Source: Candidatus Altarchaeum sp. (lineage in GTDB: Archaea; Altiarchaeota; Altiarchaeia; Altiarchaeales; Altiarchaeaceae). Taken from it: 13,368 nt of DNA. The DNA is taken from contig JAGWDQ010000020.1 of assembly GCA_018260615.1 (NCBI GenBank), positions 1-13,368 of the forward strand. The letters are read 5' to 3'. The position numbers were made by a program, and so were the translations under genes. The notes below the pieces were generated by a model, which was not told the origin of the DNA, made no database searches, and saw nothing but the letters and a program-made list of their open reading frames with translations. This document shows, piece after piece, positions 12,852-13,328 of the stretch (position 1 is its first letter; each line of letters starts with the position of its first letter).

Positions 12852-13328
12852 ATGAAAAACAAAAAAATTTTAATCGGAACGGGGATCGGAACACGCATTT
12901 CGCCTTTCAGCGAAATGGTGCACCGTTTTGCGAGAAGCAAAACGCGTGTTTTGGCAGTAATCGCAATAATTGCGGTGGTTTTGCTTATCGGGTGTGTTGA
13001 AGAAAAACCAAAAGACGAATTATTGAAACTGTTGGTGATGCCCCCTGAAGAAAATTATAATGCTACGCATATTTATAATGCGGGAGGTTCAGGAGCATAT
13101 ACAAACATAAATGGAAAAATTGTAGTTGTGAATAGTGAAGTAAAATATTATATCTACACAAGTAGTAATCGAGCAACAAATACAGTAGAAGAATATTTTT
13201 TCGACAAGGGATGGGTAAATTGTAGAGATGAGCCAGGGGCTGGTCCGACGACAAGAACAGAAACAATATATTTAAATTGCAGTAATGACTATGAAAAATT
13301 AACTGAAGAATATGTAACTTCTCAATAA
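12852..13328 (+). CDS. Putative lipoprotein whose leader carries an in-frame 19-codon insertion (the track starts it at 12843)
   Basis: Leader KNKKILIGTGIG[insert]LAVIAIIAVVLLIGCVEEKP. The ATG is 1 nt after the upstream stop. Confidence 0.8.
   Translation: MKNKKILIGTGIGTRISPFSEMVHRFARSKTRVLAVIAIIAVVLLIGCVEEKPKDELLKLLVMPPEENYNATHIYNAGGSGAYTNINGKIVVVNSEVKYYIYTSSNRATNTVEEYFFDKGWVNCRDEPGAGPTTRTETIYLNCSNDYEKLTEEYVTSQ
12892..12948. mobile_element. 57-bp GC-rich palindromic (double-hairpin) REP/MITE-like insertion
   Basis: Terminal inverted repeat cacgc/gcgtg, hairpin catttcgc[ctttca]gcgaaatg, central gtgcac and hairpin cgttttgc[gagaa]gcaaaacg. 30 of 57 bases are G+C. It splits GGAA^TTTTGGC, which is intact in three paralogous leaders. 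Confidence 0.75.

Follow-up and report, generated by a model that had tools for sequence, protein, structure and literature searches.

The lipoprotein gene and its insert

The window (the whole stretch of DNA that was analysed, 13,368 nucleotides) is the entire contig C20 of a 2.23-Mb, 148-contig assembly with a GC content of 33 per cent. This assembly, hereafter the host genome, is an 87 per cent complete metagenome bin from a groundwater archaeon that is Candidatus Altiarchaeum-like. Near its end, the window carries on the forward strand a gene for a small lipoprotein without a Pfam family (12852–13328), preceded by a tandem paralogous lipoprotein gene on the same strand (12479–12850). The leader of the downstream gene consists of MKNKKILIGTGIG, a 19-codon insert encoding TRISPFSEMVHRFARSKTR and then VLAVIAIIAVVLLIGC. 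Searches of Rfam and Pfam assigned no family to the host protein and the element within it, and a search with the leader-plus-insert peptide returned zero matches at E ≤ 10.

The window copy of the gene looks truncated because the assembly forks. Positions 1–60 of contig C3 have 55 nt in common with the window up to 13309, after which C3 carries on the lipoprotein gene in an exact match to a 222-aa protein, whereas the last 59 nt of the window (13310–13368) depart from C3 and result in a premature stop. The true host gene encodes 222 aa and runs on into C3, with the window copy apparently cut by the fork after 13309. The fork itself probably reflects a strain variant or the border of an insertion.

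The inserted element (12892–12948, forward strand) is 57 bp long and consists of two clamped hairpin monomers in head-to-head arrangement. Its GC content is 52.6 per cent, as compared to 33 per cent for the host genome. The element begins with CACGC and finishes with GCGTG, and its monomers are joined through a central GTGCAC. The left monomer (12892–12920, forward strand) reads CAC-G-CATTTCGC, a 6-nt loop and GCGAAATG-GTG, with stem arms at 12896–12903 and 12910–12917; relative to the CACCG...CGCGTG type it is inverted, and its clamp differs by one compensated change. The right monomer (12921–12948, forward strand) reads CACCG-TTTTGC, a 5-nt loop and GCAAAA-CGCGTG, with stem arms at 12924–12931 and 12937–12944. 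The stems form two perfect 8-bp hairpins (11 bp each, with a one-base bulge, if the CAC/GTG ends are included) at a spacing of 27.5 nt, and the ends of the element form a 19-nt terminal inverted repeat (TIR) with 79 per cent complementarity. Folded as single-stranded DNA, the element reaches -20 kcal/mol versus -10.3 ± 2.3 kcal/mol for shuffled sequences (z = -4.15), and none of the 200 shuffles folded as well. Five of its six reading frames are stop-free. The 3' arm of hairpin 1 contains an in-frame ATG (12915–12917, forward strand), which is kept within the element in its copies in the genome of Candidatus Altiarchaeales archaeon IMC4_SM1 (hereafter IMC4). Most of this anatomy had been anticipated from the letters of the window: the size of 57 bp or 19 codons, the GC content, the TIR with two 8-bp hairpins around GTGCAC, the inserted peptide and the ATG at 12915 were all recovered at 12892–12948. 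The range flagged in the original prediction, 12888–12955, is wider, as it takes in both target half-sites, GGAA and TTTTGGC.

On the forward strand, the left target half GGAA occupies 12888–12891, with the insertion point after its AA, and the right half TTTTGGC occupies 12949–12955; there is no target duplication. When the insert is removed in silico, the leader aligns without gaps across the junction to the empty leader of the tandem paralog, with 88 per cent identity. The boundaries of the element are therefore exact, with nothing duplicated or lost, which upholds the predicted landing between AA and TT without a target duplication. Exact, uninterrupted copies of the empty site, GGAATTTTGGC, lie in the three paralogous leaders for which they had been predicted. 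These copies are located on the forward strand in the N-terminal hydrophobic segment of ORF 8325–8579 (8358–8368), in the leader of a rhodanese-type lipoprotein gene that spans 10321–11088 (10354–10364) and in the leader of the tandem paralog (12527–12537). All three leaders are lipoprotein-like, and a fourth copy was found on contig C84. The 11-mer simply encodes Gly-Ile-Leu-Ala and has three further, non-leader occurrences in the host genome, which leaves a role as recognition site unproven. Archaeal bulge-helix-bulge introns have two 3-nt bulges, with a 4-bp helix between them, at the exon–intron boundaries. Such an intron is ruled out here by the fold, in which the boundaries lie within a continuous helix (GGAACACGC pairs with GCGTGTTTT) and the junctions have no bulges.

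An identical 19-aa insert is present in three proteins from three assemblies of different sources (P0006, which is the window product, P0004 and P0005). The filled proteins comprise the 158-aa window product, a 105-aa fragment and the full-length 222-aa protein, and their mature parts differ by 1–2 residues. The closest empty counterpart is the 208-aa protein P0001 (PKP57352.1) of Candidatus Altiarchaeales archaeon HGW-Altiarchaeales-2, in which 161 of the 168 residues of the mature part are identical (96 per cent), whereas the leader reads GTGIG-ILAVI at the site and lacks the insert, as read at the protein level. The insert is likewise absent, at the protein level, from the more distant ortholog P0003. 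The leader matches that of P0001 at 27 of 34 aligned residues and additionally contains indels. Judged from these sequences, the insert is a genuine polymorphism caused by insertion and not the ancestral form of the leader. The original prediction of an inserted palindromic element, as opposed to an ancestral leader, thus agrees with two empty orthologs and three filled assemblies. It had also set out that the segment would be an ancestral variant if no other copies existed and all orthologs contained it; the host genome does hold no further copy, but P0001 and P0003 lack the segment, and copies are found in IMC4. The suggestion that the product of the insert is tolerated is also supported, as none of the three filled alleles has lost the reading frame despite amino-acid changes in their mature parts.

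Hairpin modules in the host genome and in IMC4_SM1

No second copy of the element was detected in the 2.23-Mb host assembly, either with blastn-short or with a regular expression for the TIR. The host genome does contain many hairpin arrays, with hundreds of modules, of an AT-rich type, with stems such as TGAAAATC and TAAAAATC and with AGTATT and AAGATT linkers. Among the 213 clusters of at least two perfect hairpins in this genome, the element is the GC-richest (49 per cent, with the next at 36 per cent) and the sole representative of the GC-rich type. The AT-rich micro-repeats resemble the element in their two-hairpin size class of about 48–59 bp, in their 25–29 nt spacing, in their arrangement in mosaic arrays and in their occasional occurrence as in-frame gene inserts. 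They differ from it in having AT-rich stems and linkers, as opposed to GC-rich stems with CAC/GTG clamps. [quoted passage not shown] Hairpin repeats are a main cause of the fragmentation of the host assembly, as 30 of its 213 hairpin clusters are found no more than about 150 nt from a contig end.

In a protein search of relatives, the insert peptide was matched in one other genome of the class, that of IMC4 (MCBF01000001.1; GC content of 48.5 per cent), which belongs to a different family from the lineage of the window (PMC4975002) and whose whole record was read. IMC4 contains a full-length copy at 738752–738808 that is 89 per cent identical to the element, and its copies in general are 89–92 per cent identical, with variable stems; five copies of the right monomer are exact outside of the loop. 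The pattern CACCG-N15-24-CGCGTG identifies 57 monomers in IMC4, for which we estimate a chance expectation of about 7. At least six of the seven clamp-adjacent stem pairs are kept in 52 of these 57 monomers, which use 26 different compensated stems; the clamps are therefore conserved, and the stems co-vary. Most monomers form the final module of mosaic hairpin arrays, with another hairpin plus GGA before them. Their 3' flank begins with T in 44 of the 57 cases, and no fixed word was seen in the left flank. Perfect 8-bp hairpins number 939 in IMC4 versus 73 in a shuffled sequence. In both IMC4 and the host genome, the hairpin spacing is 25–29 nt without a triplet bias; a spacing of modules in multiples of three was not seen.

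The family is dispersed and also occurs in intergenic arrays. Arrays within long open frames are more numerous in IMC4 (36 of 214) than in the AT-rich host genome (6 of 213), and this difference fits a GC-rich type that is more compatible with coding sequence. The copies that had been expected genome-wide do form a repeated family, but they do so in IMC4 and not in the host genome. Beyond IMC4, the monomer pattern was found in none of 59 other Altiarchaeia species genomes and in none of the remaining GTDB species genomes, and JGI metagenome contigs, a set from which close records may be missing, yielded neither a relative of the gene nor a copy of the monomer. A viral vector was considered and rejected, as the 17 pattern matches in IMG/VR correspond to chance and are not hairpins. 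In IMC4 locus L007 (about 738545–738946), the 3' end of a 352-aa gene is present twice as an 88-nt direct repeat with 99 per cent identity (1294–1381 and 1608–1695 of the locus), and the 226-bp hairpin array between the two repeats contains the full-length homolog of the 57-bp element.

One IMC4 copy lies in a homologous lipoprotein leader and occupies the same site as the insert in the window. The leader gene of locus L008 (596680–597510) begins with METNKIKTGIG, continues with a 55-codon insert and then reads VLAVIAAVLLSGC. Although the mature domain of this protein is unrelated to that of the window gene, alignment shows the element behind the same GGAA as in the window leader and oriented identically. 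Hairpin 2 of the L008 copy encloses 108 extra nt, which correspond to four modules, and this 108-nt four-module element has at least four further occurrences in IMC4. The modules therefore insert into each other's hairpins. The reading frame is open throughout the approximately 165 added nt, and the L008 leader frame has survived two successive insertions. A search of the host genome found no ortholog of the L008 leader gene, and thus no empty/filled pair for it. Wholesale import of the window leader from IMC4 is not supported, as the flanks of the insert are at least as similar to the native tandem paralog.

The RAYT- or TnpA-like enzyme flanked by the same hairpins, for which a search had been recommended, did not emerge. 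The RAYT/Y1 transposase family (PF01797) has no match in the host genome (87 per cent complete). IMC4 has 10 matches, including an intact copy, but its end hairpins, CTGCGGGC and CCGCCGAC, are unrelated to those of the element, and the link to RAYT/Y1 enzymes was dropped. Nucleases of the PF13366 family (GxxExxY/PDDEXK_3) are present in two copies in the host genome but are absent from IMC4, so they are not a shared mobiliser. At three IMC4 Y1_Tnp loci (L018, L016 and L017), IS200-type transposase copies are interrupted by strings of hairpin modules without closure of the reading frame, as in a 351-aa frame with three separate Y1 matches.

Relation to known palindromic repeats

Classical MITEs combine a TIR with a target-site duplication and have ends that match those of a resident transposon. 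The element differs from them, as there is no duplication at its junctions and neither the host genome nor IMC4 yielded a transposon whose ends match its own. Palindrome-associated elements derived from IS200/IS605 (PATEs) have subterminal palindromes without a TIR, cause no duplication, insert 3' of a fixed tetra- or pentanucleotide and depend on a cognate TnpA. The comparison points both ways: the element causes no duplication, it possesses a TIR, and no TnpA was found in the host genome.

In its behaviour, the element is closest to the Rickettsia palindromic elements (RPEs), to the REPINs and to the SMRs of Haloquadratum, but it belongs to none of these groups by size, host, sequence or associated enzyme. 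Like RPEs, it is a palindromic repeat with a TIR that is inserted in frame into protein genes, yields a tolerated peptide and is also found in intergenic regions (PMC2229807). RPEs are 105–146 bp long and fall into Rickettsia-specific sequence families (Ogata et al. 2000, as reviewed in PMC2229807). The element, in contrast, is a 57-bp archaeal sequence of two approximately 28-nt modules, single-copy and located in a signal peptide; it is the published descriptions of RPEs that set it apart from them. With the REP/BIME/REPIN sequences, it shares the inverted doublet of short imperfect palindromes that form two hairpins, the arrangement of monomers in mosaic arrays and the absence of a target duplication (Bertels and Rainey 2011, PMC3116915). 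Unlike a REPIN, the element lies inside an ORF, occurs only once in the host genome, with multiple copies of its monomers confined to IMC4, has no GTAG-type head and was not found together with a cognate RAYT flanked by the same repeats. The pattern of variation is also reversed, since its stems are hypervariable and its clamps are conserved, whereas the opposite holds for REPs.

The SMR-A and SMR-B repeats of Haloquadratum walsbyi are about 80–110 bp long, are more than 95 per cent identical within a type and comprise families HqIRS40–43/55 (Dyall-Smith et al. 2011, PMC3119063). They are, like the element, archaeal, gene-less and too short to encode a transposase, with a prominent TIR that is not related to known transposons, no target duplication and a mobilisation that has been called 'enigmatic' (PMC3119063). 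SMRs also enter the palindromes of other mobile elements, comparable to the nesting of modules in hairpin 2 of the IMC4 leader and in IS200-type copies; the split IS200-type copies of IMC4 resemble the attack of SMR-A on IS605-type elements in Haloquadratum. By description, the two are set apart, as SMRs have not been reported as in-frame gene inserts and the modules described here are about 27 nt long with variable stems. What is new here is the clamp-conserved, stem-variable module of about 27 nt, the foreign type of the copy, the landing site shared by signal peptides and the clean filled/empty pair.

Origin of the insert

We consider it likely that the insert is a solitary, gene-less hairpin repeat of a foreign type that was acquired horizontally and was inserted precisely into the signal peptide after the split from the 96 per cent identical relative. 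Its modules are GC-rich and of the IMC4 type, unlike the AT-rich modules of the host genome, so horizontal transfer from such a lineage is the most likely source; the direction of the transfer is read from GC content and copy number only. Under this scenario, modules would move as folded single-stranded hairpins through an enzyme acting in trans, and the element would have entered from an IMC4-like lineage and would now be an immobile orphan. The insertion would have taken place in an Altiarchaeum-like lineage, between the AA and TT of Gly-Ile-Leu codons and without loss, and the DNA of P0001 would read GGAATTTTGG at the site. The survival of the insert may be attributed to its being in frame, a multiple of three in length and stop-free. 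The front of the former hydrophobic core (its first eight residues) together with the insert, whose peptide contains four Arg, one Lys and one His, would become a long, positively charged N-region that ends in RSKTR. Behind the insert, the 13-residue hydrophobic core VLAVIAIIAVVLL and the LIGC lipobox would remain, and export is predicted to work still.

As an alternative to transposition, the single copy in the host genome could derive by short-patch recombination from a leader in which the element was already present. Homologous recombination or gene conversion across the well-conserved leader would have transferred such a segment from a paralogous or a foreign lipoprotein gene (e.g. of the IMC4 type), and lipoprotein genes would in this way exchange 'leader plus element' cassettes. 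No transposase would be needed to explain the single copy, and the recurrence of the element with identical codon position and orientation in front of the unrelated mature domain of IMC4 L008 is readily accommodated. Nucleotide identity among leaders is 88 per cent over 34–59 nt, whether paralogs or the two genomes are compared, and the window leader has diverged from that of P0001 (27 of 34 residues plus indels) more than the mature part has (161 of 168). Faster divergence is usual for signal peptides anyway, however, and neither flank of the insert is closer to the IMC4 leader than to the tandem paralog of the same genome, the upstream flank being clearly of the AT-rich native type. Moreover, the donor leader itself must once have gained the element by insertion. 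We regard copying of a preformed leader as unlikely, although it deserves to be kept in view. The presence of the element at the same site in the distant IMC4 might also suggest an ancestral leader variant that was precisely deleted from the orthologs and paralogs, given that palindromes are prone to deletion and that IS200/IS605-type elements can be excised seamlessly. This history would require several independent, base-perfect deletions without flanking direct repeats (in P0001, in P0003 and in four paralogous leaders), and it sits poorly with the membership of the element in a dispersed repeat family that also populates intergenic arrays, with a GC content that is foreign to the genome and with current data that already point to filled alleles nested within an empty clade. 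We deem it highly improbable.

The element may also have been co-opted, either with the ATG at 12915 serving as a start codon for MVHRFARSKTR-VLAVIAIIAVVLLIGC or with the mRNA hairpins controlling how the second gene in the lipoprotein operon is translated. Translation from the in-frame ATG would produce a canonical leader, the hairpins are stable, and three assemblies with differing mature parts share an identical insert peptide. The same ATG is fixed in every copy of the element, though, including the intergenic ones, and here it lies within a hairpin arm with no ribosome-binding motif before it. The upstream frame is open through the insert both in the window (57 nt) and in IMC4 (about 165 nt), which fits read-through from the original start, and the hairpins start about 40 nt past the start codon, outside the initiation footprint. 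A function of either kind for the insert seems doubtful to us. An assembly artefact, in the form of a chimeric join to IMC4-like reads, is conceivable in a metagenome bin of 148 contigs in which hairpin repeats break the assembly and 30 clusters lie at contig ends. The same filled allele was nevertheless recovered in three assemblies of different sources with differing mature sequences, and the in-frame insert has exact junctions on both sides, which leaves an artefact scarcely credible.

The locus provides a clean presence/absence polymorphism of an archaeal palindromic repeat within coding sequence, and specifically within a signal peptide. It would also be a case of selfish hairpin DNA that lengthens the N-region of an export signal without destroying the signal, as export is predicted to be retained. 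Two distant Altiarchaeales lineages are joined by one repeat type, and this connection is direct evidence that micro-elements, or the leader segments that carry them, move between lineages. With its conserved clamps, its 26 compensated stems and its nested modules, the IMC4 family is a good substrate for finding the enzyme behind the repeat load of Altiarchaeum. More speculatively, the repeats might constitute an Altiarchaeales mobile system that is defined by structure: closed hairpin modules of about 27 nt with clamps of 3–6 nt and co-varying stems, lineage 'dialects', an ability to cross families, a preferred site in lipoprotein leaders, remodelling of export signals and an enzyme that is neither Y1 nor a known transposase. 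Such a system would remodel export signals repeatedly, because the same site has been hit in two families.

Several other repeats are present in the two genomes. A native AT-rich array of three hairpins (window 4784–4855; stems TTTAAAAAC, TGAAAATC and AAAAATAT) lies just upstream of the duplicated start of a methyltransferase gene (5161–5850), the 5' end of which is copied in a perfect 84-nt direct repeat (4996–5079 and 5160–5243). The 80 bp between these repeats (5080–5159) contain many polypurine runs and a TTTTCTCTTTT/AAGAGAAAA hairpin and are an insertion with a long target duplication. The 3' part of a UbiA-type prenyltransferase gene is present twice in the window (82–381 and 2302–2601) as a 100 per cent identical duplication of at least 300 nt, which probably extends beyond that length; the approximately 1.7-kb segment that it brackets contains a 430-aa ORF without a Pfam match (704–1996) and may itself have been inserted, as a larger element with a target duplication of very great length. 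Finally, a GC-rich segment of about 80 nt that encodes QAIAIANATEE.QEFLKLYP recurs in several secreted-protein genes, at 457–534 and 1658–1746 of contig C3 and at 117675–117767, 1095254–1096807 and 964852–964933 of IMC4. Its nucleotide identity between the host genome and IMC4 is 86–95 per cent, far higher than the 65–80 per cent that is typical of shared genes.
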